Below, piece by piece: positions 21,742 to 36,377 of a stretch of 64,000 nt of DNA. Source of the DNA: Actinomycetota bacterium (GTDB lineage Bacteria; Actinomycetota; UBA4738; JBBDHU01); the NCBI GenBank assembly GCA_040880465.1, contig JBBDIK010000012.1, forward strand, positions 2,353-66,352. Reading direction: 5' to 3'. How positions within the stretch are numbered: position 1 is the stretch's first letter; every line of letters begins with the position of its first letter. The notes under the pieces are model-generated. The model had not been told where the DNA came from, ran no database searches, and was given only the letters and a program-made list of their open reading frames with translations. The translations under genes and the position numbers were made by a program.

Positions 21742-22395
21742 CTACGCGCTGTAGCCGCGGAGGCCGCGGAGCTGGTCATCGACCGAGAGCATCGAGTTAT
21801 CCAGGTCGAAGCGTGCATACTCGGCGAAGAGTGGCGTCCAGACGGAGCCGAAGATCCGAGCGGGGGGCCCTTCCGCCTTGCCGCCGACCCGGTTCGTGGC
21901 GAACGGGAAGAGTGGGGAACCTTCGACCTTCTGCTCGCCGTTGGCGTCGAGGTTCGCGTCGAACCGGAACGCGCACGCGCCTTCGATCTTGATGATGGGG
22001 GAGGTTCCCTTCTCGACCTTGATGGCGGCTCGCTCCATCCCGATGTACTCGCCGATCAGCTCCTGGATGTCCGAGAACGGGCCGCCGTGGCGGCCGCTCA
22101 GGATCTCCTCGACCGCGCGGGCAACGTCGTCGGACGCCGACTCATCGACGATGATCCCCATCTCCCAGAACTCGCTGGTCCCGAGCTTCTCCGGGAAGAA
22201 GTTCACGAGTGCGAAATCCGAGCCGGAGAGGTCCGCGTGCTGGGTGGCGCCTTCGAGCTTCCCTTCCTGGACGCGGAAGAGGACGATGCCCTTGCACCCT
22301 CCGTGCGTGTCGTTAAGGCGGCCGTCGATCTGCCAGTGCTCGTCGACGTTGCACGAACACGTGGCGATGTACGCTCCGGCGATCCGCCAATCCAT
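21742..22395 (-). CDS. DUF1326-like protein
   Basis: N-terminal W-x-I-x-G...C-S-C pattern and a size typical of DUF1326. The assignment is from memory of the family. Confidence 0.6.
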   Translation of the reverse strand: MDWRIAGAYIATCSCNVDEHWQIDGRLNDTHGGCKGIVLFRVQEGKLEGATQHADLSGSDFALVNFFPEKLGTSEFWEMGIIVDESASDDVARAVEEILSGRHGGPFSDIQELIGEYIGMERAAIKVEKGTSPIIKIEGACAFRFDANLDANGEQKVEGSPLFPFATNRVGGKAEGPPARIFGSVWTPLFAEYARFDLDNSMLSVDDQLRGLRGYSA

Positions 22396-22507
22396 GGCCC
22401 CGCACCAGCTCCTTCACAGGTGGCCGTGAGGGAAGTATGCCCCATCCCGCACGCACACGCGAGGGGTGTCCCAGGCACCGCACCTCCGGGAGTCCTAGAG
22501 TCGCAGC

Positions 22508-22795
22508 GTGACTGCAGGCAGCGATGGACCGGAAGGGGGCCTCGCGGAAGGCGATGAGGTCGCTCCCGGGTGCCGGTACTGCGGGCGAGCAACGTTCGAT
22601 CCGGACAAGCGAGACCGGCCGTGGGTCCGCGGCGTGGCTGCTGGGCTTCAGGTCCTCGTTTGCCCGGCGTGCCAGGCGGATCGGGCAGGCTGGGCCGACG
22701 AGCTGGACCGATGCACGGCGTGCGATTCCCCCCGGCTCTCTGCCATGCTTGGAGAGATCGTGTGCCGCGCATGTGGGCATGCATCGGGCGCTTAG
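22508..22795 (+). CDS. small Cys-rich protein with four CxxC pairs (double zinc-ribbon-like)
   Basis: CRYC, CPAC, CTAC and CRAC motifs. The 3' end overlaps tRNA-Val by 10 nt. No family recognised. Confidence 0.4.
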   Translation: MTAGSDGPEGGLAEGDEVAPGCRYCGRATFDPDKRDRPWVRGVAAGLQVLVCPACQADRAGWADELDRCTACDSPRLSAMLGEIVCRACGHASGA

Positions 22796-22860
22796 CTCAG
22801 TGGGAGAGCACTTCCCTTACAAGGAAGGGGTCGGGGGTTCAAATCCCTCAGCGCCCACCA
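22786..22860 (+). tRNA. tRNA-Val (anticodon TAC), CCA encoded
   Basis: Acceptor GGGCGCT/AGCGCCC, D arm GCTC/GAGC, anticodon arm CTTCC-CTTACAA-GGAAG, T arm GGGGG-TTCAAAT-CCCTC, then ACCA. Confidence 0.92.
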
Positions 22861-23203
22861 AAGAAATGCCAGGTCAGCAGTGTTGTCGTTCGCATCGCAC
22901 GTCTCGGATCCGCTGGCCTCGCTCGCTACGGTCAAGCGAAAGTCAATCGCACTCCTCACCCCACAGTTGAGCACTTCCCTCGGGGGCGCAAAGCACTCAC
23001 GCACTTGACCCGATGGTGTCGGGCAAGCAAGCTTGCCCGATGAACGCTCCTCACCCCGATCGGTGCCGCGGCACGGCTAGTCTTCGCCGATGAGAGTCGC
23101 GGAATCCCGTTTCGAGCATCTCGGAAGTGCCCAGGGTGCAATGGGCTTTCGTCTCGGTGGGCCTCACACGAACCAACGGATGGTCACATGCGAGGGCGAA
23201 GAC

Positions 23204-23929
23204 ATGTACGACCTCAGTGTCCACTGCGAAACGTGCGCGTTCACGTTTGAACGGGTTGGTGTTCCGAATCCATCCGCGCTGCCTGTATCGGTTCTTCGCG
23301 GTCGGCTTCGGCGGGGGCTGGAATCGCTCGATCGGGAGGTGGTCGAGGCGTACGCCGAGATTTTGCCGGAGGGTGACTACGTCGTCTCGCTCAGCGATCT
23401 CCGCCCCAAGCTCGTGCACCCGCTCGATGAGGATGACTATTTCGCGAATGAAGGTCGTGCGCTGTTCGGAACCGAGGCCCCCTTCTACGATCTCCCAGCA
23501 ACTCCGAGGACTCCCTACTACCGGGCGGATGGGGAAAGGACGTTCAACCCCGTCGGGAAGATGTGGGGATACAACACGGACGAGCCGTGGCCGCAAAGGG
23601 CAGCAAGCTTTGTCTTCCTTGCCCCAATGAACTCGATTAGTAGCCTCGACCCGAACACCCTGGCTGAGTACCGATCCTCCGCCGGTCGGGGTACCGCAGT
23701 CGCATTGTCCGTGCTCGATGCGAAGGCTCCGGTCGTCGGCTTCGACGCTGATCCTGACTATGAGGTCGACGCTCACTGGTGCTGGACCCACTACCTCCTG
23801 GATGGTCATCACAAGACTCGGGCCACTTCTCTCGAAGGGGACTCGCTCTCCCTGCTGTCGTTCACCGCCCTTGAAGAGGGCGTTTCCACGCGAGCCGATG
23901 TTGAGCAGTTGATAGCCCTCCTTGGGTGA
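23204..23929 (+). CDS. hypothetical protein (cassette 1)
   Basis: Protein-like composition from the ATG at 23204 (MYDLSVHCETCAF...). The opposite-strand 342-aa ORF is Arg/Gly-rich and starts inside repeat R1. No family recognised. Confidence 0.55.
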   Translation: MYDLSVHCETCAFTFERVGVPNPSALPVSVLRGRLRRGLESLDREVVEAYAEILPEGDYVVSLSDLRPKLVHPLDEDDYFANEGRALFGTEAPFYDLPATPRTPYYRADGERTFNPVGKMWGYNTDEPWPQRAASFVFLAPMNSISSLDPNTLAEYRSSAGRGTAVALSVLDAKAPVVGFDADPDYEVDAHWCWTHYLLDGHHKTRATSLEGDSLSLLSFTALEEGVSTRADVEQLIALLG

Positions 23930-23995
23930 ACCCCCCTGCCGCGATCGGGTGGAGAGGTCTTCATGCGACCACGCACCCTTGGTGCCCTCGATTCC

Positions 23996-24167
23996 GGTCA
24001 AGAAATAGTCAAGGAGCCGACGGTACTTGCCGGTACTTGTGTGACTCATGTGACTGCGGAAAACGAACGACTCCCGCATACATGCTGGTCAGAGCGTCGC
24101 AGCGCCGAGATAGAGAGTCTCTCTTACAAGGAAGGGGTCGCAGGTTCAAATCCTGCAGCGCCCACCA
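23996..24167 (+). repeat. R1: 172-bp arm + tRNA-Val 3'-half repeat
   Basis: GGTCAAGAAATAGTCAAGGAGCCGACGGTACTTGCCGGTACTTGTGTGACTCATGTGACT...CTTACAAGGAAGGGGTCGCAGGTTCAAATCCTGCAGCGCCCACCA. Confidence 0.95.
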
Positions 24168-24198
24168 ACCACGGGGGTTTCACGCGAGTGCTTTTCGT

Positions 24199-24223
24199 CC
24201 GGTCAAGCAGAATCCTTGACCGG
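24199..24223 (-). terminator. 9-bp stem / 7-nt loop hairpin 20 nt downstream of the 24244..24924 stop
   Basis: CCGGTCAAG-cagaatc-CTTGACCGG. There is no U tract on either strand, so it may be a protein-binding inverted repeat (it contains the GGTCAAG motif) rather than a terminator. Confidence 0.3.
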
Positions 24224-24243
24224 CTGGCGCGCGCGCCTCTTGC

Positions 24244-24924
24244 TTAGTCGAGCTGGATTCCAAGCCGACGCGAGACCTCCCGAACGAACGGAAGGTGGCG
24301 ATCGTTCGCGGCGGCCGCGTGTGCCTGCATGAGAGATGTTGCAGTCGCGAGGTCGCCGGATGCGTGACGCATGACGGCAAGGTCGAAGAGAGGTCGGGGG
24401 TATCTGAACGGGTCGTCGCCAGCGTCCCACTTCGCATGGATGGCCTCTCGGTCTGGGAAGGAATCGAGATAGGGAATCCCATACTCGGAGATGAGTTCTG
24501 ACATGCGAAGCCCGATCTCGGGAGTAGGTGGGTCAAGGCTCCACCAGCCCTCATCCCCGCGCTCCATGATGTGCCCAAGCCGTTGCAGGATCTGACAGTC
24601 GTGTGCACCGATGAAAGTCGGAGTTGTGGAGAACTGCACGCGGTGTATCTCTGGGATGAAGACTCCAAGGTTCACAGTGAAGGAGCCGTACTTCGAGGGT
24701 CCGAGTACCCGGGCGCGGCTCTCCATGACTCGTCGCTGGTCCCCAGCGGATAGATTTGGCGGGATCGGTTCGAAACGAGCCATCTCGAAGCCCAAGACAT
24801 GGGTGAGGCCGTCAGCAGTCAAACGGTTGAAGTTGTTTGCGCGCTTCCGGAAGCCAGCGGCCTTCATGATCGGGGCGACGTAGGTTGCCACGTCCTTCAT
24901 GCGCACTGCGATCTCGGTCGGCAT
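24244..24924 (-). CDS. DUF4304-like protein (cassette 2)
   Basis: N-terminal AAGFRKRANNFNR...HVLGFE pattern resembles DUF4304. This is the only cassette gene on the minus strand. Confidence 0.6.
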   Translation of the reverse strand: MPTEIAVRMKDVATYVAPIMKAAGFRKRANNFNRLTADGLTHVLGFEMARFEPIPPNLSAGDQRRVMESRARVLGPSKYGSFTVNLGVFIPEIHRVQFSTTPTFIGAHDCQILQRLGHIMERGDEGWWSLDPPTPEIGLRMSELISEYGIPYLDSFPDREAIHAKWDAGDDPFRYPRPLFDLAVMRHASGDLATATSLMQAHAAAANDRHLPFVREVSRRLGIQLD

Positions 24925-24964
24925 GAGGACGAGGATAGTCCCGACTCACGGGCGCAAGGTAGCC

Positions 24965-25135
24965 GGTCAAGAAATAGTCAAGGAGCCGACGGTACTTGAC
25001 GGTACTTGTGTGACTCATGTGACTACAGAAGGCGAACGCCTCCCGCATACATGCTGGTCACAGCGTTGTCGGGTGGGGTGGGCGTTCTCCCTTACAAGGA
25101 AGGGGTCGCAGGTTCAAATCCTGCAGCGTCCACCA
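24965..25135 (+). repeat. R2: 171-bp arm + tRNA-Val 3'-half repeat
   Basis: 7 mismatches to R1 over the first ~102 nt (hand alignment). The linker differs. The tRNA half is identical to R1 except AGCGTCC in place of AGCGCCC. Confidence 0.95.
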
Positions 25136-25281
25136 AGGCTTGTCGTGTTTCGGGTGATGCTTGACGGAAGCATGACGAACATGCTGTGGTGAACCTGGCT
25201 AGCGGCTGACCCCGAAGGTCAAAGCGGGGTTCAATGACTCCCACCCGAGGGGTCCTGAGCCTGGTGGACGAGGAGGCGGTT

Positions 25282-26622
25282 ATGCGGCGAAGGATCACTA
25301 CCGCCATCGGCGTGGCCGGCGTAGTCGTTGCCTTGCTCGCGCCGGCAGGCCCCGTTCAAGCCGAAGCCCAGATCCGCTGGAGCGCTGAACACTCGGTGAC
25401 TGACGGGCCGGATGCTGCCTTCGACATCGCGCTCAGTCCTGACGCGGGAAGCGTGTATGTGACCGGCACTGTCACGATCGCGTACGACTCGGCTACTGGC
25501 TCGGAGCTATGGGTCGCCCCACCGGGGGGTCGCGCGATAGCCGTCAGCGGCGATGGTTCGATGGTGTTCGTCTCACAGGTCGCTGGCGGCGCACCCGTTT
25601 GCGGCGGCGAGACTACCGCGCTGGATTCCGAGACCGGTCTGACGCTTTGGAGCGTCCCCTTCGGCGGGCTCCTCACCTCAGATCCGGTCGGGTCAGCCCT
25701 CTATGTTGGAAACAGCGCAACGTCGTCATTCTGGCCTGACTGCCAAGGGCGCCTGATCGCTCTCAACCCAGAGGACGGCGTCGTCCGATGGCAACGGAAC
25801 CTTGCGAACGACGTGAGCATCAGGGCCATCGAGGTCTCCCCGGACGGACGGCGTGTCTTCGCCGCAGGTTCACAACTGTGGTGGGACGACTACGCCTGCG
25901 AGGAAGAGGGGCTTCCCGGAGGGAACATGTGGATTGCGACATTCCGGGCGGTTGGTGGCTCCCGCGTCTGGGACCGGACGATAAGTGCGCCGGGCTCCTC
26001 GGTTGACGGCACATCGTCTCTTGCCTTGTCCCCCTCAGGGGACCGCGCGTATCTGTACGGGGATTGGCACCCGTACGGAAGTTCGTGTTGGGGAAGGTCC
26101 GCGCCACGCGCGGCGACGCTCACGCTTCGGGCAGCGACCGGCCAGGAACAAGAAGTGGCGGTGTTCAATCACCGCAATCCGCAGATCTTCGGATGCGAGG
26201 GAGGAAGCCCCGCGGCAGGCCTCCTCGCAATCGCTCCAAGTGGACGAGCTTTGGTACATGCGGGGATCCAGTCAGGTGATTGCAAGTCCACCAACATCGT
26301 GATCGTGGCTAGTGACACACGCGGCAACGTTGAGTGGTCGCGTGAGATTGACTTGGGATCCGATGACCGTCCGCTCAGTGTGCTGTATGGACCGCAGGGC
26401 GGACGCGTGTACGTCGGGGGCGTAAGTGGCGACAGCGTGTTCGTGACCTCGCTCTCCAAGAAGAATGGGAGTCGACAGTGGCTCCAGCAGATTCCAGGAG
26501 CAGACTTTGGAGCGATGGGTGTGGGCGGCCCCGATCCATCCGTTTTCATAGCCGGATCAACGGGTGGCCCGGATTCAGACATGCTTACGGCGTCGATTGG
26601 CCCAGCGCAGTCACCGCCGTGA
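25282..26622 (+). CDS. secreted PQQ-like/BamB-like beta-propeller repeat protein (cassette 3)
   Basis: GAGGAGG lies before the ATG at 25282. Signal peptide (AIGVAGVVVALLAPAGPVQA). Repeated G-x-x-x-W/LW blade-like motifs. Confidence 0.7.
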   Translation: MRRRITTAIGVAGVVVALLAPAGPVQAEAQIRWSAEHSVTDGPDAAFDIALSPDAGSVYVTGTVTIAYDSATGSELWVAPPGGRAIAVSGDGSMVFVSQVAGGAPVCGGETTALDSETGLTLWSVPFGGLLTSDPVGSALYVGNSATSSFWPDCQGRLIALNPEDGVVRWQRNLANDVSIRAIEVSPDGRRVFAAGSQLWWDDYACEEEGLPGGNMWIATFRAVGGSRVWDRTISAPGSSVDGTSSLALSPSGDRAYLYGDWHPYGSSCWGRSAPRAATLTLRAATGQEQEVAVFNHRNPQIFGCEGGSPAAGLLAIAPSGRALVHAGIQSGDCKSTNIVIVASDTRGNVEWSREIDLGSDDRPLSVLYGPQGGRVYVGGVSGDSVFVTSLSKKNGSRQWLQQIPGADFGAMGVGGPDPSVFIAGSTGGPDSDMLTASIGPAQSPP

Positions 26623-26699
26623 GCGGACCGCTCGCCCCTTCCCTGAGCACCGGCATGACACATGCGAGGCGACCAAGAGCGTCTCGGTAGACGCTGAGC

Positions 26700-26833
26700 A
26701 GTCAAGAAATAGTCAAGGAGCCGACGGTACTTGCCGGTACTTGTGTGACTCATGTGACTGCGGAAAACGAACGCTCCCCGCATCCATGCTGGTCAGAGCG
26801 TCGTTGCGCGAGATGGAGAGTCTCTCTTACAAG
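26700..26833 (+). repeat. R3: arm copy truncated in the anticodon loop (ends ...CTCTTACAAG)
   Basis: The arm matches R1 closely, including the linker GAGATGGAGAGTCT. Similarity stops at 26833 and 15 nt later tRNA-Val #2 begins. Confidence 0.9.
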
Positions 26834-26848
26834 CACGAGTTCATATCG

Positions 26849-26921
26849 GGGCGCTTAGCTCAGTTGGGAGAGCGCCTGCTTTACACGCAGGAGGCCGGGG
26901 GTTCGAGTCCCTCAGCGCCCA
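26849..26921 (+). tRNA. tRNA-Val (anticodon TAC), second copy
   Basis: Acceptor GGGCGCT/AGCGCCC, D arm GCTC/GAGC, anticodon arm CCTGC-TTTACAC-GCAGG, T arm GGGGG-TTCGAGT-CCCTC, discriminator A then CC. Confidence 0.88.
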
Positions 26922-26938
26922 CCGACTAAAGTGATGCG

Positions 26939-27982
26939 ATGCCGAAGACGGAAGGGGCACGGGCGCCGATGAAGATTCTTGCCGTGTGCGCGCTCCTCGT
27001 TGTCGCCTGCGTAGCCTGCTCAAACGACCCGTCCTCGGACGGATCAGCAGCGTCGCCCTCATCCAACGCGGAAACGCCGCCGAGTGATCAGAAGACGTTC
27101 ACGCACGAGGGGATCGAACTTCAGTATCCGGCTGATTGGTCGCTTGCCGTTGCTCTCGAAGGCGCAGGCGTGTCGAACGGTTGCTCCGAGGGATTCTGGG
27201 CTGCGAGGACAGAGATCCCCGGCGGTGGGATTGCAGGCGTAGGACGCTGTCCGTCGTCCTTTGATTGGCCGCCTGAAGGCGAGACGATTCCAGAAGCGCT
27301 CCGACGAGAGCTTGCGATGAAGTCACCGGAGGATGTTGTCTCTATCCGCGCTCTAGATGCGAGCGAGATGCAAGGGGCCGAGGGAATCTGGATTGCGACA
27401 TCTTTGGATGCCGCAGCAGCGAAGAACTTCGGCATCTCGGGGCCATCCGACGGTGTGATTATTCGCGCCGCGGTTCCTTCTGAGGACCCAATGCGGCCCG
27501 ACATCTATGAAGTCTTCTGCCAAGTGCCAGCGGCTGATGCAAACATCGGCTTGAACGGATGCGAACTGATGGCGGAAACATTCCAGTTGACGCCGAGTTT
27601 GAGTTCTCCTATCAAGGCCGCCAGCGTCGATTGCAACCCGTCGGAGGTGCAACTGGGCGAGATTCTCGTCGAGAATGGCAACGCGATTGTGGCCCTTGCT
27701 GAAAACCAGACCCCCGGTGGCTACAAGCACTATGTCCAAGAGGCGGGAGTCTTCCTGGACGACGCGCGTGCTGCAGCGGAGAGCGCGCCTCCAGAGTTGG
27801 CTCCGTCGTGGGAGACGGCCATCGACGGGCTGGAACACATCCGAAGTGGCTACGCAGACTCGATCACGGCCTCGACAAGCCGAGAGCAAGATGCGGCGTA
27901 CCAGGAAGTCCTGCGCGGTCAGCAACTCCAAGCGACGGTCTTCAACGATCTAGATCAACAGGGATGCATCACTGGTGTCTAG
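26939..27982 (+). CDS. lipoprotein, function unknown (cassette 4)
   Basis: Signal peptide with a lipobox (MKILAVCALLVVACVAC-S). An alternative ATG lies at 26969. Confidence 0.7.
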   Translation: MPKTEGARAPMKILAVCALLVVACVACSNDPSSDGSAASPSSNAETPPSDQKTFTHEGIELQYPADWSLAVALEGAGVSNGCSEGFWAARTEIPGGGIAGVGRCPSSFDWPPEGETIPEALRRELAMKSPEDVVSIRALDASEMQGAEGIWIATSLDAAAAKNFGISGPSDGVIIRAAVPSEDPMRPDIYEVFCQVPAADANIGLNGCELMAETFQLTPSLSSPIKAASVDCNPSEVQLGEILVENGNAIVALAENQTPGGYKHYVQEAGVFLDDARAAAESAPPELAPSWETAIDGLEHIRSGYADSITASTSREQDAAYQEVLRGQQLQATVFNDLDQQGCITGV

Positions 27983-28016
27983 CCACGGTGCCTCCGGCAC
28001 CACTCGGATTGCGCGA

Positions 28017-28469
28017 ATGGTTGCTCATCGGTGCCTCGCAGTATTCATGCTGCTGGTGCTGTCGGGATGTTCGGGCAGCACGCCGCCCGTTGAGCCAGAT
28101 GCGCCGCCTGAAGAGTCGAGTCCAGGCCACTCCATCCACTACGAGGTGCGGCTTCGGGACGGCGGATCGGCCCCCTTCACTGCGACATTCACCTCCCCGA
28201 CAGGCACGGTGAGCACGTTTGAGGGAAGCACTCCTTGGGCCAGCGAGACGGAGGACTTTCAGGACGGTTCGATGCTGTCATTGCAGGCCGAGATATCCCA
28301 TGAGCAGAAGAGCCCGCTGCTGTGCAATCTGGTCGATGATGGCGGCGGAGGCTCCTGGACGATGGGACAGATGGGTGATCCGATTGATGCGTGCGCAGTG
28401 ACGTACACGCTCGGCCTGTGGCCGCCCGACGACAACGACCTTTCGAGCCCCCTGATCCGCGACGGTTGA
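28017..28469 (+). CDS. small lipoprotein, MmpS-like pattern (cassette 4)
   Basis: MVAHRCLAVFMLLVLSGC lipobox. The HYEV...PW...C...DG...C pattern is reminiscent of MmpS (tentative). An alternative GTG at 27975 overlaps the upstream stop. Confidence 0.6.
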   Translation: MVAHRCLAVFMLLVLSGCSGSTPPVEPDAPPEESSPGHSIHYEVRLRDGGSAPFTATFTSPTGTVSTFEGSTPWASETEDFQDGSMLSLQAEISHEQKSPLLCNLVDDGGGGSWTMGQMGDPIDACAVTYTLGLWPPDDNDLSSPLIRDG

Positions 28470-28527
28470 AGCCGCTCAATCCAATCAACCGGCTGTGCTG
28501 GCTAGACACTCTGCCAACCCCGGCCCC

Positions 28528-28697
28528 GGTCAAGAAAGAGTCAAGGAGCCGACGGTACTTGACGGTACTTGTGTGACTCATGTGACTACGGAAAACGAAC
28601 GCTCCCCGCATACATGCTGGTCAGAGCGTTGCGCAGCGCGGAGGACTATCTCCCTTACAAGGAAGGGGTCGCAGGTTCAAATCCTGCAGCGCCCACC
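28528..28697 (+). repeat. R4: 170-bp arm + tRNA-Val 3'-half repeat
   Basis: Full-length copy. The tRNA half is identical to R1 through GCGCCCACC. Confidence 0.95.
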
Positions 28698-28816
28698 GAT
28701 TGTTCTCGGAGGTCAAGCACGCTGTCCGGTCATTCATGACCATTCGGTAATCGGCATGTGCTCTTCGTCTTGCGACGACAAGGAGATTGCCCAGTGGCCG
28801 GGCGCACCCGGGCGGC

Positions 28817-29194
28817 ATGGGTCATGATCGCCCCGTGAAGGCCATTGGGTTGCTTGCGTTCATGCTTGCCCTTCTAACCGCGTGCGCGGCATCGGTGCCC
28901 TCCGCTGTCAACGGGTCACCGCATGAAGACGCGGAGCAGTATTGCCTGTTCGACTCTGGCTTGGAGACGGTCTGGCAGGGGACTCCGGAGACCATGGATC
29001 GTCCATGGAATGAGCTCTGTGTCATGCGCGGAATGGTCCCCCGGCTTGCACGACGTTGCACCGACGCTGACAAGCTCGAGCGATGGGTTCGCAGTCTCGA
29101 CCCAGCTGGTCGAAGGGAAACGCGAGAGGACTGTCGGAAGGAAGTGTCTGATCGCCCTCAGCCGGTTCCCGCTCCACCGGGGTGGCAGGGCTAG
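28817..29194 (+). CDS. small lipoprotein, function unknown (cassette 5)
   Basis: KAIGLLAFMLALLTAC lipobox. Start ambiguous: ATG 28817 or GTG 28835. Confidence 0.55.
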   Translation: MGHDRPVKAIGLLAFMLALLTACAASVPSAVNGSPHEDAEQYCLFDSGLETVWQGTPETMDRPWNELCVMRGMVPRLARRCTDADKLERWVRSLDPAGRRETREDCRKEVSDRPQPVPAPPGWQG

Positions 29195-29370
29195 GCCGGT
29201 TGCCAGCGCGCTATTCTTCGCCGATGACCCGCGTGATGGAGTCCCGATTCGAGCCTTGTTGGCGATGCCAAGGGCGAGTCGTTGCCCGAGCAGTTGAGGC
29301 TGAGGGCCCAGCGGATGGACACGGTCTTTCGGTCGCTGCGCGAGGGTCTTCAGAGCGGTAAGGTGGGCAG

Positions 29371-29598
29371 ATGAAGTACTTCCTGATCCGATACGAGAGG
29401 CACACCGGCCTGCTGAAAGGGCTCGACGAGTTCGGGTCGGCGCGGCGCGACGAGGCGCTTCAGGCTCGCTTCCAGTTGGAGCGTGCATCGGACGGGAGCG
29501 ATGACATCGAGATCGCATTGCTCGGCGCCGAGACGTTAGATGATCTGAGGGCAACGCACTCGCGTTACTTCCAACGCGAAGCGCCCATCGCAGTCTGA
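29371..29598 (+). CDS. small hypothetical protein, 75 aa (cassette 5)
   Basis: ATG preceded by GGTAAGGTGGG. Balanced, charged composition (MKYFLIRYERHTGLL...). Confidence 0.45.
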   Translation: MKYFLIRYERHTGLLKGLDEFGSARRDEALQARFQLERASDGSDDIEIALLGAETLDDLRATHSRYFQREAPIAV

Positions 29599-29620
29599 AC
29601 GCCCTACTCGAAGGGCGGCC

Positions 29621-29803
29621 ATGTTCGGGAAGAAGCGCGGCGGCGCACCGGGCGTTGCGGAGGTCGATACCTTCTGGGGATTCGTGATCGCGCTGATGGC
29701 GACAGCAGCCGACTATGGCGTGCGTCTGGCAAGTGAGTTCGCGAGGGAACGCCCACCTCCGATGATCCTTGCGGAGATGCGGGGGGAGGGGGCAGATGAC
29801 TGA
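29621..29803 (+). CDS. small hypothetical protein, 60 aa (cassette 5)
   Basis: ORF only, with one hydrophobic segment (FWGFVIALMATAA). Weak support. Confidence 0.25.
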   Translation: MFGKKRGGAPGVAEVDTFWGFVIALMATAADYGVRLASEFARERPPPMILAEMRGEGADD

Positions 29804-29841
29804 GGAAGGCATTAGGGGATCAGGGGAAAGGGCGTGAGCGG

Positions 29842-30318
29842 ATGAAGCGAAGCCGGATCTTGGTCGCCGCCACGCTTGGGCTCGCGGTGGTCTTCATCGC
29901 AGTGCTGGCGATGGCCCTGGTTCGGGCTGGCCACAATGGTCCCGCGGGAGAGGGCTGGGAAAACGCCGGATCACTGGAGGAACTCGACGCAACCAGGGTG
30001 GTCAAGGTCCCTGATCAGACCGTGTATCTGGTTGCCAGCGACCTCACACCCCTGGCGCTTTCGGCGGTTGATCCGCACTTGGGTGAGATCATCGCGTACT
30101 GCGAAAGCAGCGGCTGGTTCGAGGATCCTGATCACGGCTCGAAGTACGACGGGCAGGGGTACTACGCGATGGGTCCCTCACCTCGCGGAATGGATCGAGT
30201 AGCCGTGACGGTGTTCCAGGGCGATGTGTGGATCCAGCCTGCGAACGATACGGAGGGTCCTCCGCGCGGGGCCGACAACCCTGCGCACGAGGATCCGCGA
30301 GGTCCCTTCTGTTCGTGA
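29842..30318 (+). CDS. membrane-anchored Rieske-fold-like protein lacking the cluster-binding Cys residues (cassette 5)
   Basis: Signal anchor. DPHLGE...DPDHGSKYD aligns with the Rieske boxes CPHLGC...CPCHGSxF, with Asp/Glu where the Cys residues should be. Confidence 0.6.
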   Translation: MKRSRILVAATLGLAVVFIAVLAMALVRAGHNGPAGEGWENAGSLEELDATRVVKVPDQTVYLVASDLTPLALSAVDPHLGEIIAYCESSGWFEDPDHGSKYDGQGYYAMGPSPRGMDRVAVTVFQGDVWIQPANDTEGPPRGADNPAHEDPRGPFCS

Positions 30319-30356
30319 GCGAACGCCCTCACCGATGTGAATCAGCGCGAGGTCTC

Positions 30357-30422
30357 GGTCAAGGAATAGTCGAGGAGCCGACGGTACTTGTCGGTACTTG
30401 TGTGACTCATGTAACTACGGAT
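30357..30422 (+). repeat. R5: truncated arm copy (first ~65 nt only, no tRNA half)
   Basis: GGTCAAGGAATAGTCGAGGAGCCGACGGTACTTGTCGGTACTTGTGTGACTCATGTAACTACGGA, after which similarity is lost. Confidence 0.9.
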
Positions 30423-30489
30423 AGTGTTTCGGATCGCCTCTTTCCCCGGTTCTGGGACCGCTTCGGTCACGTTGAGGAGGGCACACGTC

Positions 30490-30780
30490 ATGGGAAAGTT
30501 CTTGATCGAGATCCCTCATGCGGAGGACGCCGCGGAGTGCACCGGGATCGTCAAGGTGTTTCTGTCGTCCGGCTCCCACCTGCTAACCAACGCGGAATGG
30601 GGATGCATGGACGGCGTGCACAACGCATGGATCATCGTGGAGGTGGACACGAAGGACGAGGCTCTCGCCATCGTCCCCCCAGCACTTCGCTCCGTCGCCA
30701 CAGTGACTGCGCTCAACTCCTTCACCTTGGACTACATCAACGCGGAGATCGAGCGCCTTGCGGGCGACGGCGTGGGGTAG
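30490..30780 (+). CDS. small hypothetical protein, 96 aa
   Basis: GAGGAGG lies 10 nt before the ATG at 30490. Its stop is 9 nt before the arr start. Confidence 0.55.
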   Translation: MGKFLIEIPHAEDAAECTGIVKVFLSSGSHLLTNAEWGCMDGVHNAWIIVEVDTKDEALAIVPPALRSVATVTALNSFTLDYINAEIERLAGDGVG

Positions 30781-30789
30781 CGAGACGGT

Positions 30790-31206
30790 ATGGGGAGCAA
30801 GCCGGTGGCAGCCACCGACGGCCTGAGTTCGCAGCACTTCTACCACGGTACGCGGGCTGATCTGAAACTCGGAGACCTCGTCGAGCCCGGCCAAACCTCT
30901 AACTACGGCAAGAGGAACAAGACGGTCTACGTCTATCTGACCGGCACCCTGGATGCGGCCATCTGGGGGGCGGAGCTAGCCCTCGGCGAAGGACCCGGCA
31001 GGATCTACGTGGTGGAACCGACCGGCCCGATCATGGACGACCCCAATCTGACAAACACGAGATACCCGGGGAATCCGACGAAGTCATACCGCTCCCGGGA
31101 GCCGCTGCGGGTCACGGGCGAAGTCGCAGAGTGGCAAGGGCACTCCCCCGAGACGATCCAGGCCATGAGGGACAGGATCAAGGGTCTTGAGCCGATCGAC
31201 GACTAG
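30790..31206 (+). CDS. arr: NAD+--rifampin ADP-ribosyltransferase
   Basis: Arr-family signature blocks FYHGT(R/K)A, WGAELA, GRIYVVEPTGP..DDPNLT and PGNPTKSYRS.EPLRV.GEV..W.GH. Confidence 0.9.
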   Translation: MGSKPVAATDGLSSQHFYHGTRADLKLGDLVEPGQTSNYGKRNKTVYVYLTGTLDAAIWGAELALGEGPGRIYVVEPTGPIMDDPNLTNTRYPGNPTKSYRSREPLRVTGEVAEWQGHSPETIQAMRDRIKGLEPIDD

Positions 31207-31230
31207 TGTTCCCTCGTAGGAAGGAGTGGG

Positions 31231-32121
31231 ATGGACTCGCGACCGATGACCGAGGACGACATCTCGTCCTGTGTCGACATCTTCTACACCTCGTTCAATG
31301 CCCTTCATCGCCAGCACGGTTTGGCGGAAGAGGACGCCGCAGACTCCGGATGGCTGGCGGGTGCACTTCGACACTTCCTCGAGACGGACCCGCACGGCGG
31401 CCGGATCGCGATGCAGGATGGCAACCCGGTCGCGTTCGCGTCGGCGTTCCGACGGCACCGTTACTGGTTCCTCTCGTTCTTGTTCGTCCTCCCTGATGCG
31501 CAGGGATACGGGATCGGACGGTCACTCCTCGACGAGCTGGTGCCACAGGAGGATCCGGCCGATGTCGTCCGGGCCACGGTCGTGGAGTCGTTCCAGCCGG
31601 TCTCGACGGGGTTGTACGCGAGCTACGGCATGACGCCCCGGTCGATCCGATACGGGCTCAGCAGGGTCGGCCGGCCGGACGCACTCCCTGAACTTCCCGC
31701 CGACCTCGGGAAGGAGGAGTTGGCTCCGGCCGATCTCGAGGACATGGCGAAGCTCGATGGGCGGATCCTGGGCTTCGAGCGGTCGGCCGACCACGGGTGG
31801 TGGGATGCCTCCGGCATGAAGGGGTACGTCTATCGGCACGGCGACGAACCGGTGGGATACGCGTACGTGGACGACGGTTTCGTCGGGCCGGCTCTTGCGA
31901 TCGATGAGCAAACCTTGTGTTCGATGGTCGCCGATATCGTGCGCGATGCAGATGATCCCGCGGCCGTGACGGTGAATACCTATGGTGATGCCGCTGCGGT
32001 GTTCCAGATGCTCCTTCGTGCAGGCGCTCGGATCGATGATGACAAGCACCGATTCGTCTACGGCTCCAGTTCCGGACCATTGCCTCCCAGCTACATCAAT
32101 TTCTCCGGCTTCCTGCCGTAG
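31231..32121 (+). CDS. GNAT family N-acetyltransferase
   Basis: Acetyl-CoA motif A (LFVLPDAQGYGIGRSLL). The substrate is unknown. Confidence 0.75.
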   Translation: MDSRPMTEDDISSCVDIFYTSFNALHRQHGLAEEDAADSGWLAGALRHFLETDPHGGRIAMQDGNPVAFASAFRRHRYWFLSFLFVLPDAQGYGIGRSLLDELVPQEDPADVVRATVVESFQPVSTGLYASYGMTPRSIRYGLSRVGRPDALPELPADLGKEELAPADLEDMAKLDGRILGFERSADHGWWDASGMKGYVYRHGDEPVGYAYVDDGFVGPALAIDEQTLCSMVADIVRDADDPAAVTVNTYGDAAAVFQMLLRAGARIDDDKHRFVYGSSSGPLPPSYINFSGFLP

Positions 32122-32140: not shown

Positions 32141-32587
32141 TCAGCGGGCGCCGATCACCTTGAACAGGTGGCCGCAGTCGATGCACTTCGTGTTGACGCG
32201 GGCGGCCGGGCCGGCGTGGCCGAACGGCTGGGTGTGCTTGGATCCGCACGAGGGACAGACCGTCCGTCCGGCCCCGGCGCCGCGGTCGACCCACACGCGT
32301 TCGATCGAGACGGTTCCCCCCGCTTCCTCCAAGATGTCGAACGCCGACGAGGCCTCCTCCCGCGATGGGGTCTCCAGGACGAGCAGCGGAATGGCGTCGC
32401 CGGGGGAGGACGGGGGCTCGGGCATGAGGGCGGCGAGCGCCGCCGCGAGTTCGGTCTTCCGACCGGGGTCGAGGGCGGTCAGCGTCACCCGTGCCCCCAA
32501 GACTTGGTCGGGTCCCCCGCTTGCCTCTTCCATCACGCCCTCATCGTGTCCTGAGATGACAGTATGGGGGATAGCCCGGTGCACCAT
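32141..32587 (-). CDS. hypothetical protein with a C-terminal zinc ribbon (CPSC...CIDC)
   Basis: ORF with two CxxC pairs. An alternative ATG lies at 32533. Confidence 0.45.
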   Translation of the reverse strand: MVHRAIPHTVISGHDEGVMEEASGGPDQVLGARVTLTALDPGRKTELAAALAALMPEPPSSPGDAIPLLVLETPSREEASSAFDILEEAGGTVSIERVWVDRGAGAGRTVCPSCGSKHTQPFGHAGPAARVNTKCIDCGHLFKVIGAR

Positions 32588-32608
32588 CCGGATCTGGAGG
32601 AGGGGCTG

Positions 32609-32728
32609 ATGGCGAACAAGGACAAGGGCGGCAAATCCAGCAAGAAGGCTGCGTCCCAGGGCCTGAAGGAGAAGCGGGCCGCCAAGAAGAGCAAGAAGGC
32701 GGCCAAGGCCAAGAAGAACTCGGAATAG
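32609..32728 (+). CDS. 39-aa lysine-rich small basic protein
   Basis: Not in the ORF track because it is under 60 aa. GGAGGAGGGG lies 3-4 nt before the ATG. Sequence is MANKDKGGKSSKKAASQGLKEKRAAKKSKKAAKAKKNSE. Confidence 0.45.
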   Translation: MANKDKGGKSSKKAASQGLKEKRAAKKSKKAAKAKKNSE

Positions 32729-32778
32729 GGGGGTTCGCTCCGGCGTTCCGGGGATAAGCGGAACGAGAGGGGCGCTCC

Positions 32779-33270
32779 ATGGCGATCAAGCGGATGAACC
32801 ACGCGGTTCTCTACGTCCGCGATGCCGACCGTACGTTCGCGTTCTACCGGGACGTGCTCGGGTTTCGGACGGTCGGGGAGATGCCCGGCGCGAAGTTCCT
32901 CCAGGCACCCGACTCTACGAACGACCACGACCTCGCGCTGTTCTCCATCGGGGAGCAGGCGGGGGATTCGACCGCCGGGCGCAGCACGGTCGGTCTGTAC
33001 CACATCGCGTGGGAAGTCCAGACCCTCGGTGACCTCCAGGAGGTGGCGGTCCGGCTGACCGAAGCCGGCGCCCTGACGGGCGCGACCGACCACGGGACGA
33101 CCAAGGCCCTTTACGCGCAGGATCCCGATGGGCTCGAGTTCGAGGTGTGCTGGATCGTTCCCGAGGAGCTGCAGGACGAAGAAGTGATTGCCGCCAAGAC
33201 GCAGCTCCGGCCCCTGGACCTGGTTGCCGACATCGAACGCTACGGCGTGGAGACCGTCGGCGGCGTCTGA
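32779..33270 (+). CDS. VOC family protein (glyoxalase/extradiol dioxygenase-like)
   Basis: MNHAVLYVRDADRTFAFYRDVLGF...HIAWEV...DPDGLEFEV. Confidence 0.8.
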   Translation: MAIKRMNHAVLYVRDADRTFAFYRDVLGFRTVGEMPGAKFLQAPDSTNDHDLALFSIGEQAGDSTAGRSTVGLYHIAWEVQTLGDLQEVAVRLTEAGALTGATDHGTTKALYAQDPDGLEFEVCWIVPEELQDEEVIAAKTQLRPLDLVADIERYGVETVGGV

Positions 33271-33338
33271 GGCAGCGTCCGGCCGGGCCACGGCCAGTGC
33301 GTGTCCCGCGGTCATGTCGTGTATGGCAAGCTGGCCCG

Positions 33339-34520
33339 ATGACGGTAGGAGACCTGAACGTGCGGGTGGACGGACGGCGCCTCCGCGAGGGCCGGTTGGC
33401 GCGGTTGCAGGAGGCGATGCGTGCGAACGATGTCGAGGCGTGTCTCCTGTTCAACCCGGCGAACGTTCGCTACGCGACCGGCGCCACGACCATGACCGTC
33501 TATTGCCTCGGTTCGTTCGTCCGGTGTGCCCTGGTGCCGGCCGAGGGCCGTCCGATGCTGTGCGAGCACCCGAACTCGATCCACCTGTTCGGTGACATCG
33601 AGGCTGACGTGCGCCCCTTCCACGCGTGGGAGTTCTACGACGACCCCGATGCGGAGGCGGTCATCTGGGCGAAGGAGACCGCCGACGCGATCCGCGAACT
33701 GGGGGTGACCGGTGACCGTGTCGCGATCGACAAGATCGCGCCGGTCGCATCCCGGGCACTCGAACGCGAGGGGTTCGAGATCACGGAGTCGGGCAACGTG
33801 ACGATGGACGCCCGAGCGGTCAAGACGCTCGAGGAGATCGAACTGTTCCGCGTCAACGGACGGTTGACCATGGACATGCTATCGGCGTTCGAGGCGGCGC
33901 TGGAACCCGGGGTCCGCGAGTGGGACCTCGTCGCCGTATCGACCGATGTGCTGATCCGCGGTGGCGGCGAGTACCTCATCACGCGCGGGGTCGCGTCGGG
34001 CCCCAACACCAACCCGTGGCGGCAAGAGGCAACCGACCGGATGATCGAGGCCGGTGACCTCGTGTACATCGACACGGACATGAACGGCGTCGAGGGGTAC
34101 TTCTATTGCGTCTCCCGGACGCTGGTGTGCGGTGATACCGATCCGACGCCCGAGCAACGCGACACGTATCGCGTCGCCCGCGACTGGGTGCTGCAGATGC
34201 GCGAGCTGATCCGTCCCGGACTCGGGTTCCGCGAGCTGGCGGAGCGTGCACCCAAGCTGCCCGAGCGTTTCGCGGCGCAGCGATACGAGACCCTCATGCA
34301 CAGCTGTGGGCTTGAGGATGAAGGCCCGAGCGTGTCCTACCCGGACGTCGGCCAGCCGAACCCCGACCGCTCGATCGAGCCCGGCATGGTGGTGGTGGCA
34401 GAGGCGTATTTCGGCGAGGTGGGCGCGCCCTTCGGGATCAAGCTCGGGGACGAGCTGCTGATCACCGACGACGGGGCCGAACTCTTGGCGCCGTACCCGT
34501 TCGCCGGCGCGTTCCTCTGA
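33339..34520 (+). CDS. M24 family metallopeptidase (Xaa-Pro dipeptidase/creatinase-like fold)
   Basis: Creatinase/prolidase N-domain followed by the pita-bread domain, with apparent metal ligands (IDTDMNG, HSCG, VVAEAYFGE). The 64-codon Arg-rich N-extension in the ORF track is rejected. Confidence 0.8.
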   Translation: MTVGDLNVRVDGRRLREGRLARLQEAMRANDVEACLLFNPANVRYATGATTMTVYCLGSFVRCALVPAEGRPMLCEHPNSIHLFGDIEADVRPFHAWEFYDDPDAEAVIWAKETADAIRELGVTGDRVAIDKIAPVASRALEREGFEITESGNVTMDARAVKTLEEIELFRVNGRLTMDMLSAFEAALEPGVREWDLVAVSTDVLIRGGGEYLITRGVASGPNTNPWRQEATDRMIEAGDLVYIDTDMNGVEGYFYCVSRTLVCGDTDPTPEQRDTYRVARDWVLQMRELIRPGLGFRELAERAPKLPERFAAQRYETLMHSCGLEDEGPSVSYPDVGQPNPDRSIEPGMVVVAEAYFGEVGAPFGIKLGDELLITDDGAELLAPYPFAGAFL

Positions 34521-34654
34521 TCCGGACGCGGAGCAGGGAGTACCCCCGGACGGCGGACGATCCGTGCCCGTCTTGACCGCAGTGGTAGAAGAGAACTCTG
34601 GAGCGAGCCGGGCCACTTCCCCGCTCGCGCGACCCGGGAAGGGGGTGCTGGCTC

Positions 34655-35071
34655 ATGGCCGCACTCGGAACGAAGGACATCAGCCTGGATCAGGCGAACG
34701 CCGCACTCGAGTCGGCGATCAAGAAGTCCGAGGAGATCGGCACCAAGATGGATATCGCCGTCGTGGATGCCGGTGGGAACCTGAAGGCGTTCGTGCGCCA
34801 GGACGGTGCGTGGATCGGCAGCATCGACATCTCGCAGAAGAAGGCACGCACCGCCCGCTACTTCGATATGAACACCGGCGACATCGGTAGCTTGTCACAG
34901 CCCGGCGGCCCGCTCTACAACATCGAGCACTCGAACGGTGGACTCATCACGTTCCCCGGCGGCGTGCCGATCAGGGACGGCGGCACTGTTATCGGTGCGA
35001 TCGGGGTATCCGGGTCGAGCGTCGAGGATGACCACACCGTCGCGCAGGCGGGAGCGGACGCGGTCCAGTAG
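34655..35071 (+). CDS. GlcG/HbpS-like heme-binding (DUF336) protein
   Basis: [16 protein letters not shown]...S...KA.TA and GG.PI...G..IGAIGVSG motifs. Confidence 0.85.
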
Positions 35072-35128
35072 CCCGACCCTCCTTCACCGCCGAAGGCATC
35101 GTCCGAACGACCGAGGAGGAGGAGAGGT

Positions 35129-36319
35129 ATGGCTGACAACCGCGGGGTCGCCTACATCGAGCCGGGGGTGGTCGAGCTTCAAGCCATCGAGTACCCGGAA
35201 CTTGCGTTGGGCGATCGATCATGCGAACACGGCGTCATCCTCAAGACCGTCGCCACGAACATCTGCGGAAGCGACCAGCACATGGTTCGTGGGCGCACGA
35301 CGGCGCCGGAGGGGCTGATCCTGGGACACGAGATCACCGGCGAGGTGGTCGAGAAGGGTCGCGACGTCGAGTTCATCGAGGTCGGAGACATCGTCTCCGT
35401 TCCGTTCAACATCGCCTGCGGGCGGTGCCGCAACTGCAAGGAAGGCAAGACGGGCATCTGCCTGAGCGTGAATCCGGCTCGTCCCGGTGCCGCGTACGGC
35501 TACGTCGACATGGGCGGCTGGATCGGGGGTCAGGCGGAATACGTCATGGTGCCCTACGCCGACTGGAACCTGCTCAAGTTCCCGGACCGGGATCAGGCGA
35601 TGGCGAAGATCAAGGATCTCGCGTTGCTCTCCGACATCTTCCCGACCGGGTTCCACGGCGCGGTCACGGCCGGGGTCGGGCCCGGATCGACCGTGTACGT
35701 CGCAGGTGCGGGGCCGGTCGGCCTCGCGTGTGCGACGGGCGCGCAGCTGCTGGGTGCGGCCGTGGTGATCGTCGGTGACCTGATCGACGAGCGTCTCGCA
35801 CAGGCCCGGAGTTTCGGGTGCGAGACTATCGACCTGAAGAAGGAGGCATCGCCGTCCGATCAGATCGAGCAGATCCTCGGTGTTCCCGAGGTCGACAGTG
35901 CGGTCGACTGCGTGGGCTTCGAGGCTCGCGGACATGGCGATGACGCCGGAGTCGAGAGGCCGGCCACCGTGCTGAACTCCGTGATGGAGATCACACGGGC
36001 CGGTGGTGCCATCGGGATCCCGGGTCTGTACGTGACCGGCGATCCGGGTGGCGTCGACGAGGACGCCAAGATCGGGCAGCTGGGCATCCGGATCGGGCTC
36101 GGGTGGGCGAAGTCCCACTTCTTCACGACGGGACAATGTCCGGTGATGAAGTACAACCGCAGCCTGATGATGGCGATCCTGCACGACAAGACCACGCCGG
36201 CAAAGAACGTCAACGTTCAGGCCATCTCGCTGGACGATGCCCCACAAGGGTATTCGGACTTCGACAAGGGTGCGGCGACCAAGTTCGTGATCGACCCTCA
36301 CGGGGTGATCGGGAACTAG
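35129..36319 (+). CDS. fdhA: glutathione-independent formaldehyde dehydrogenase (Zn-dependent MDR family)
   Basis: NICGSDQHMVRGR, LGHEITGEV, and the structural-Zn Cys cluster CGRCRNCKEGKTGIC. Length and GAGPVGLA are typical of FdhA. Confidence 0.85.
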   Translation: MADNRGVAYIEPGVVELQAIEYPELALGDRSCEHGVILKTVATNICGSDQHMVRGRTTAPEGLILGHEITGEVVEKGRDVEFIEVGDIVSVPFNIACGRCRNCKEGKTGICLSVNPARPGAAYGYVDMGGWIGGQAEYVMVPYADWNLLKFPDRDQAMAKIKDLALLSDIFPTGFHGAVTAGVGPGSTVYVAGAGPVGLACATGAQLLGAAVVIVGDLIDERLAQARSFGCETIDLKKEASPSDQIEQILGVPEVDSAVDCVGFEARGHGDDAGVERPATVLNSVMEITRAGGAIGIPGLYVTGDPGGVDEDAKIGQLGIRIGLGWAKSHFFTTGQCPVMKYNRSLMMAILHDKTTPAKNVNVQAISLDDAPQGYSDFDKGAATKFVIDPHGVIGN

Positions 36320-36377
36320 GCACACGTTGTGGGGGAAGGGCCGGTCTTCGGACCGGCCCTTCCCTAGTATCGAGGGC

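Follow-up and report, generated by a model that had tools for sequence, protein, structure and literature searches.

The five direct repeats (R1-R5, unit ~172 nt) that follow a tRNA-Val(UAC) gene in the 64,000-nt stretch of DNA analysed here, referred to as the window, are probably the att units of integrative elements equipped with a lambda-type tyrosine integrase. The tRNA halves contained in them would have been displaced from the resident tRNA gene, and the whole would constitute a decayed tandem array. A compensatory difference between the T stems of the working tRNA and of the halves serves as a natural marker of the replaced portion of the working tRNA and provides evidence for strand exchange 5' of the T arm. 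The features concerned are located as follows, with the cassettes between the units given last.

22786..22860, + strand: tRNA-Val(UAC) 1 (hereafter tRNA-Val1), intact, read as attL (ARAGORN; Rfam 73.6 bits; comparison with the same-genus genome G001)
22870..22947, + strand: putative P' arm remnant, CAGGTCAG at 22870-22877 (+10) and GGTCAAGCGAAAGTCAAT at 22930-22947 (+70), the latter agreeing with P' at the G014 integrase locus in 16 of 17 positions
22969..22980, + strand: 12-nt exact copy of tRNA-Val1 positions 22-33 (GAGCACTTCCCT), 110 nt past the gene, stopping at anticodon-loop position 33
23996..24167, + strand: R1, putative att unit (P arm 23996-24099, spacer 24100-24122, anticodon loop and tRNA-Val 3' half 24123-24167)
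24965..25135, + strand: R2, putative att unit, half with AGCGTCC, read as one decay substitution in the acceptor strand
26700..26833, + strand: R3, putative att unit, truncated, cut directly after CTTACAAG (tRNA position 39) at the junction with inserted DNA
26849..26923, + strand: tRNA-Val(UAC) 2 (hereafter tRNA-Val2), foreign (ARAGORN; Rfam 72.2 bits)
28528..28697, + strand: R4, putative att unit, half 45/45 identical to the resident G001 tRNA-Val(UAC) 3' half, including ACCGA
30357..30422, + strand: R5, first 66 nt of the P arm only, at the distal end of the low-GC islet
22861-23995, 24168-24964, 25136-26699 and 26834-28527: cassettes between the units, no recombinase in any of them

Each unit combines an arm of ~105 nt that is 89-96% identical between copies, a spacer of ~23 nt (48-83%) and a tRNA part with 0-3 mismatches, which begins with the anticodon stem and extends to the final base of the tRNA. 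The segment on which the initial annotation had focused (24118-24167) falls within R1. The combination of divergent arms and near-constant halves fits arms of different element lineages that were joined to copies of one constrained tRNA. In the window, identity with the tRNA starts at positions 27-31, where degenerate TCTCC/TCTCT stands in place of the CTTCC of the family described below, and ends with the discriminator base or with CC; R1 and R2 terminate in CCAA as does tRNA-Val1, R4 in CCGA as does tRNA-Val2. The P arm contains a helically phased GGTCAA-N5-GTCAAGG, two GGTAC repeats and two TGTGAC repeats, all of them direct and not inverted. Neither of its strands, taken as ssDNA, forms a better fold than shuffled controls (z -0.46 and +0.59), and an attC-like fold was rejected. 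The minus strand of the arm (MSHTSTGKYRRLLDYFLT) was considered as a conserved gene start and rejected, the downstream frames being different for each copy and overlapping better plus-strand genes; a coding function of the arm was likewise dismissed, as the homologous arm in G021 runs into a stop after 16 codons. An exact search of metagenomes for the arm subfamily of this genome (GGAGCCGACGGTACTTGNCGGTACTTGTGTGAC) returned 0 matches. The arm ends in a segment (AAGyGCTGGTCAGAGCGTTG...) reminiscent of a degenerate acceptor/D-arm, and the attP of the family may descend from a captured whole tRNA gene.

As read from the sequence, the halves of R1, R2 and R4 carry the T arm GCAGG-TTCAAAT-CCTGC (GCAGG at 24140-24144, 25108-25112 and 28671-28675; CCTGC at 24152-24156, 25120-25124 and 28683-28687). 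In tRNA-Val1, the T arm is GGGGG-TTCAAAT-CCCTC, with GGGGG at 22833-22837, CCCTC at 22845-22849 and a G50.U64 wobble; tRNA-Val2 has the same stem and the loop TTCGAGT (GGGGG-TTCGAGT-CCCTC). Re-reading thus bore out the initial annotation in so far as GCAGG/CCTGC in the three halves stands against GGGGG/CCCTC in both intact genes and as the two alleles are related by compensatory changes. Four bases differ between tRNA-Val1 and the halves, corresponding to the two pairs 50:64 (G.U to C-G) and 51:63 (G-C to A-U), which are paired in both alleles. By a simple count, the probability that four substitutions fall on exactly two pairs with pairing restored is ~1e-5, and the pattern is therefore not attributed to chance. 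The further statement that the halves are otherwise identical to tRNA-Val1 from CTTACAA onwards holds except for the single mismatch AGCGTCC, which had already been reported for R2 and is indeed present in that half, and for ACCG instead of ACCA in R4. In total, the halves differ from tRNA-Val1 by 4-6 mismatches and among themselves by 0-3. The T arm of the tRNA-Val(CAC) that resides on contig C13 of the same genome (GCAGGTTCAAATCCTGC) is as in the halves. Only two real tRNA-Val(UAC) genes are present in the window, R4 being called a third tRNA-Val by ARAGORN and not by Rfam.

Which of the two alleles is resident was assessed by comparison with the single other genome available for the genus (G001). 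Its flanks align to window positions 21746-22862 and 32141-36451, and its syntenic site contains a single tRNA-Val(UAC) with the GCAGG stem, the 3' half of which (CTTACAAGGAAGGGGTCGCAGGTTCAAATCCTGCAGCGCCCACCGA) agrees with R4 at all 45 positions, ACCGA included. Arm repeats were not found in G001. By the same comparison, the 5' part of tRNA-Val1 is genus-type and its T stem differs from the genus allele. The proposal that the halves stem from another tRNA-Val(UAC) allele, a functional one with its pairing preserved, is supported. Their designation as element-type is not: GCAGG is the resident allele typical of the genus, and among the distinct element-borne UAC halves from outside this genome (MAGs and metagenomes) 21 of 25 carry GGGGG/CCCTC. 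The initial annotation had named a resident tRNA-Val with the GCAGG stem at the orthologous locus of close relatives as a finding that would speak against it and for simple local duplication. Such a gene exists in G001 and is a working one; simple local duplication is nevertheless not what it implies, because the cassettes between the repeats are unrelated to each other.

About 60-75 nt past its tRNA-Val(UAC), G001 (L053, G001:C4) contains GCCTCTAGATCAAGG, which resembles the P' motif CCTCTAGTCAACAC of G042, L097 and L107; the seemingly empty site may thus once have been occupied, too. Because of this possible P' remnant and because the comparison is limited to one relative, 'ancestral', when applied to GCAGG, strictly means the allele that circulates in the genus. 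The exact T arm of tRNA-Val1, GGGGG TTCAAAT CCCTC, is absent from 294 genomes of the order and from every element-borne half, and the donor allele pattern GGGGGTTCAAATCCCTCAGCGCCCA found loop variants only in the same 294 genomes. tRNA-Val1 looks like a mosaic: its variable loop GGGTC and its T loop TTCAAAT are genus-type and the stem alone is element-type, which counts against a wholesale swap from a mainstream element because the loops would have changed as well. Gene conversion of tRNA-Val1 by tRNA-Val2 was rejected, as the T loops located between the changed strands differ (TTCAAAT versus TTCGAGT).

The units are members of a family that was retrieved from genome contigs with the pattern GTCAAGGAGCCGAC-N98-128-GGTTCRARTCC. 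This search yielded 73 units in 69 blocks, nearly all of them in MAGs of uncultured soil Actinomycetota, and a second pattern added 27 units from metagenome contigs, which brings the total to ~100. The consensus unit reads GGTCAACACCwGGTCAAGGAGCCGAC, CGAACCAGGCGGTACTCGACGGTACTCCTGTGACA, ~20 nt, CTGAGCTGCGAAGACGCTGGTCAGAGCGTTGCGCG.GCCTTCC, anticodon loop, GGAAGAGGTC, T arm and acceptor strand; throughout the family the arm motifs are conserved while the spacers drift. The halves belong to tRNA-Val(GAC), tRNA-Val(UAC) or tRNA-Ile(GAU), which have the anticodon stem CTTCC/GGAAG in common, and in the ~100 units the block identical to the tRNA has its start at this stem and extends as far as the tRNA does. 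The T stem is fully paired in 63 of 66 distinct units, several compensatory variants included, which is expected only if the halves become part of working tRNAs.

In each of the five arrays mapped on long contigs, 3-8 units lie behind an intact tRNA-Val(GAC), tRNA-Val(UAC) or tRNA-Ile(GAU), in the orientation of that tRNA and at a spacing of 1.6-18 kb. Unit spacings of 2.0, 0.96 and 2.1 kb on metagenome contig L177 are like those in the window. In three other families of the same order, an arm of weak similarity is linked to the half of a tRNA-Val(GAC). Units of different tRNA specificity can mix in one array, as observed in G045:C5 (~141,656-141,792, L136), where a degenerate tRNA-Val(GAC) half is located inside a tRNA-Ile array. 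In L184 (metagenome contig Ga0105100_10001008), a second partial half beginning at tRNA position 40 is present 5 nt past a complete half and forms another junction beside the anticodon loop. ARAGORN calls many of the units tRNA-Val (window 28624-28697, L094, L104, L119, L174, L177 and others) and one in G041 tRNA-Leu. Annotators should therefore be aware that tRNA finders report such units as extra tRNA-Val or tRNA-Leu genes, a type of miscall that has been described (PMC9897764).

An integrase is linked to the family in a few relatives. In G044, a tyrosine integrase of 396 aa with Phage_integrase, Phage_int_M and SAM-like domains, i.e. of lambda-type architecture, starts ~115 nt after a tRNA-Ile on the same strand. 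In G044, G258, G225 and G014 alike, the tRNA is followed by ACGAAAC.C.CAGGTCA and then by GGTCAAC-N4-5-GTCAAC just before the start codon of the integrase; the tRNA ahead of the homologues is Ile in G258, Val-GAC in G225 and Ala-UGC in G014, and in G021 the GGTCAAC pair of the integrase locus is found at the contig start. A GGTCAA-N4-5-GTCAA pair not only precedes the integrase genes but also opens the P arm; in the window it is present at 23996-24013 and 22930-22947. Since the same repeat occurs in the P arm and before the integrase, arm-type sites are placed on both sides of the core, as in a lambda-like attP. In the window, an integrase is missing after the P' motif pair, the very place where the start codon is found in the relatives. 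tRNA-Val1 is read as an attL because the P' motifs of the family come next and because both synteny with G001 and native G+C stop at the end of this gene; from its sequence context we infer that the integrase gene has been deleted.

None of the 69 unit-bearing blocks contains an integrase, and a search for PF00589 within ~250 kb of the array in the window gave no match. Integrase homologues at E<=1e-30 are encoded in 18 of the 294 genomes of the order and exceed 50% identity in ~6 of these 294, some of them broken. The ratio of units to integrases is higher than 30:1. Remnants of the integrase N terminus (44-54 aa, ~64% identity) come directly after 2 of the 73 units, in L115 and L085, and P' motifs after ~15-20% of the units. 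On account of these remnants some array members are regarded as decayed full elements, and for most units such decay is assumed. A close homologue of the family integrase was not detected in the genome under study, the best match, on contig C2, being 28% identical. This match (C2 52277-54472, L017) is a tyrosine integrase of 394 aa at the contig end, encoded 36 nt past a tRNA-Val(GAC) on the strand opposite to it, and marks a different, AICE-like element. It was rejected as a partner of the array, since tblastn against all 69 unit-bearing blocks gave no match. Among the homologues of the family integrase, that of G014 (L140, G014:C45) is 39% identical, and the tRNA-Ala(UGC) ahead of it has the anticodon stem CCTGC/GCAGG as in tRNA-Val2, which hints at a sister subfamily with another core specificity.

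From the anatomy of the units, the distribution of the family and of the T-stem alleles and the integrase linkage in relatives, we infer the following order of events, including the position of exchange and the loss of the integrase. The elements would integrate into tRNA genes with the anticodon stem CTTCC/GGAAG, with strand exchange in or beside the 7-nt anticodon loop. The working tRNA would then consist of its own 5' part and the 3' part of the element, followed by the P' arm (attL), and the previous 3' part would be displaced to the far end of the element and joined there to the P arm (attR). Repeated integrations would stack the elements, each internal junction consisting of a P arm and the previous 3' half, and later deletions would have removed the integrase and other mobility genes, thereby leaving cassettes of 1-1.8 kb. 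The GCAGG/CCTGC halves of R1, R2 and R4 would show the genus-type 3' half of tRNA-Val(UAC) as it stood at successive earlier times, the GGGGG/CCCTC stem of tRNA-Val1 would have arrived with the last element, and the two compensatory pairs would be the difference between two functional tRNA-Val alleles. Pairing would be kept because any element-borne half must give a functional tRNA once it has integrated. According to the standard scheme, the 3' part of the regenerated tRNA stems from the incoming element and the old 3' part is displaced beside the P arm of the element (PMC4383910; PMC2440964). Combined with exchange 5' of the T arm, this scheme predicts the stem of the newcomer and a P' arm in the working gene, and an older, genus-type stem in the arm-linked halves, as is indeed observed.

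The neighbourhood of R3 and R4 deserves separate consideration. Between 26825 and 28700, R3 matches the other units up to CTTACAAG (position 39), where the sequence switches to CACGAGTTCATATCG; 15 nt separate R3 from the whole of tRNA-Val2, after which come two lipoprotein genes and R4. The anticodon stem of tRNA-Val2, CCTGC/GCAGG, is unlike that of any target of the unit family, and from the variable loop to ACCGA (AGGCC...ACCGA) this gene is identical to element-borne halves such as L089. The earlier assumption that cassettes accumulated behind both tRNA-Val genes is therefore not supported; more plausibly, tRNA-Val2 was brought in as cargo when an element inserted into R3 at the anticodon loop. 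On the simplest reading, an element whose att site held a whole tRNA-Val and not a half would have inserted into the pre-existing unit. R3 would have kept its arm and loop, and R4 would be the arm of the newcomer that received the old half, which would account for the pristine genus allele in R4.

The islet that extends from tRNA-Val1 to R5 (22861-30422, ~7.6 kb) is foreign by composition, with ~61% versus 67% G+C and a GC3 of ~0.7 versus 0.85. Its cassettes are 1-1.8 kb in size, mutually unrelated in content and mixed in gene orientation, and the cargo comprises a DUF4304 protein, a PQQ-like propeller, lipoproteins and unknowns. Cassettes common to two arrays or genomes were not seen, with only two weak protein matches. 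The gene immediately before R5 (29842-30318) and the one immediately before the unit in L122 (710-1161) are homologues with 35-38% identity, and this pair is the only case of a cargo gene adjoining a unit in two genomes. Right after R5, a block with native-like GC3 (30424-32121) encodes an unknown protein of 118 aa, an Arr rifampin ADP-ribosyltransferase (Pfam 4e-47) and a GNAT acetyltransferase; it is missing from the syntenic region of G001.

Exchange most likely occurred 5' of the T arm, in the anticodon loop, and not in the acceptor segment CAGCGCCCACC. The break of R3 at position 39 and the end of the 12-nt copy at position 33, which may be the scar of an older junction, would bracket the anticodon loop. 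The initial annotation had excluded this loop on the ground that the intact tRNA lacks the element stem and had placed the exchange in CAGCGCCCACC, with GCAGG halves of element type travelling with the arm and both tRNA-Val genes serving as targets. The acceptor segment is indeed common to all partners, the T loop and variable loop of tRNA-Val1 are the same as in the halves, junction-type att sites (T stem/acceptor) are a known class (PMC4383910), and the 3' ends of R1 and R2 agree with tRNA-Val1 and that of R4 with tRNA-Val2. We nevertheless consider exchange at the acceptor end highly improbable. The polarity of the argument is reversed because the arm-linked halves were assumed to be the element's own, whereas it is the intact gene that has the element-typical stem together with P' motifs and the working syntenic tRNA of G001 that has GCAGG. 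Acceptor exchange requires neither a paired anticodon stem-loop nor a paired T arm, yet 63 of 66 units keep them; it leaves the uniform start of identity at the anticodon stem without a reason and is at odds with the R3 junction. Furthermore, the targets share the anticodon stem and not the acceptor end, where tRNA-Ile reads CAGGCCCACC, and tRNA-Val2 is devoid of the common stem. A second possibility is that the T stem of tRNA-Val1 changed in place by compensatory evolution after the integrations, the halves then being fossils that are silent on the site of recombination. The mosaic, in which only two pairs differ and the loops are unchanged, the uniqueness of the exact arm among 294 genomes and the fact that A-U to G-C at 51:63 can proceed via a G.U intermediate speak in its favour. 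We rate it as unlikely, because 50:64 would have to change from C-G to G.U without a paired intermediate and because the fossil halves, although unconstrained, changed less (0-2 over 45 nt) than the working gene (4 changes in 10 stem positions). In addition, the 5' half of the tRNA has only 1 change compared with G001, the new stem is exactly the one typical of the element family, and a P' arm of this family comes directly after tRNA-Val1.

A different view of the array is that of a working gene-capture platform, in which cassettes that have a full att unit but no integrase would leave as circles and be put back in trans by a rare master element bearing the integrase. The high number of units per integrase and the lack of an integrase in any of the 69 blocks point in this direction, as does G041 with six units and only two PF00589 matches, both of Xer strength. 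Small cassettes recur, for instance in L177, arm motifs are conserved while spacers drift, and two units in direct repeat could in principle excise a circle with a full att unit. Against it, no cassette has been seen in two arrays or genomes, the integrase N-terminal remnants after some units indicate that at least part of the arrays are decayed full elements, and MAGs under-assemble mobile elements. A platform of this kind is conceivable but doubtful, and the same degree of doubt applies to its being integron-like or CIME-like, with T-stem alleles recording the traffic of cassettes between hosts. Only tentatively, then, might the tRNA-Val and tRNA-Ile genes with CTTCC/GGAAG be envisaged across the order as anchors of integron-like gene-capture arrays whose cassettes are shuffled in trans. 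If this were true, cassette traffic would be recorded in the T-stem alleles, both those of the halves and those of the working genes.

Taken as the remains of stacked elements at a regenerated tRNA, the array is a decayed tandem array of tDNA islands of a known kind and reflects ordinary biology for tRNA-targeting islands, here in an uncultured soil actinobacterium. Islands with a tyrosine integrase at anticodon-centred tRNA att sites correspond to Islander class A (Williams 2002 NAR 30:866, as quoted in PMC4383910). Actinomycete examples are provided by pSAM2-type AICEs and the tandem pair AICESav3728/3708, and tandem integration of AICEs into the restored tRNA has been described (PMC2440964). 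Like these islands, the array features an intact tRNA with directly repeated 3' fragments in the same orientation, a block of identity from the anticodon stem to the tRNA end, arm-type repeats on the P and P' sides and tandem stacking into the regenerated tRNA. The lambda-type integrase beside the tRNA is shared by intact copies in relatives but not by the window. In contrast to tDNA islands and AICEs, nearly all members of the unit family lack an integrase and one arm family serves three tRNA species with a common anticodon stem; the family integrase and the AICE-like one on contig C2 share only ~28% identity. The arrays are also long (5-8 units), whereas Islander lists only 4 arrays of at least three among 3919 islands (PMC4383910). 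Tycheposons of Prochlorococcus, too, build islands anchored at tRNA genes, where each newcomer shifts its predecessors to the distal side (bioRxiv 10.1101/2020.12.28.424599). As far as island architecture can be compared from the preprint text, scattered partial tRNAs and fragmented integrases are shared, and tycheposon cargo is adaptive. Phylum and integrase lineage are different, replication or PICI-type modules were not seen here, and every fragment is accompanied by a conserved 105-nt P arm, unlike in tycheposons.

With integrons and CALINs the array shares a series of small cassettes that are unrelated in content but all terminate in one recombination-site repeat, and at most one integrase at the fixed end. 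Nevertheless, the array is not an integron: neither an IntI-type integrase nor any recombinase was found beside it, the family integrase is lambda-type, gene orientation is mixed, and the repeat is not an attC-like palindrome but a double-strand lambda-type arm with a tRNA part. CIMEs and site-specific accretion at ICESt1/ICESt3 of Streptococcus thermophilus were reportedly described by Pavlovic and co-workers in 2004. The array may be likened to CIMEs in that integrase-less modules bounded by two functional-looking att sites are stacked, so that mobilisation in trans would be possible in principle; the target, however, is a tRNA gene and not fda, and the array of this genome has no ICE partner. 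What is added here to these known systems is the link between a unit family and an integrase lineage: ~100 orphan repeats of arm and tRNA half from soil Actinomycetota MAGs are tied to one integrase lineage and a common anticodon stem, illustrating how small accessory-gene islets build up at tRNA genes in small genomes. Within this setting, it is unusual that arrays are so long, that units exceed integrases so far in number and that one arm family serves three tRNA species.
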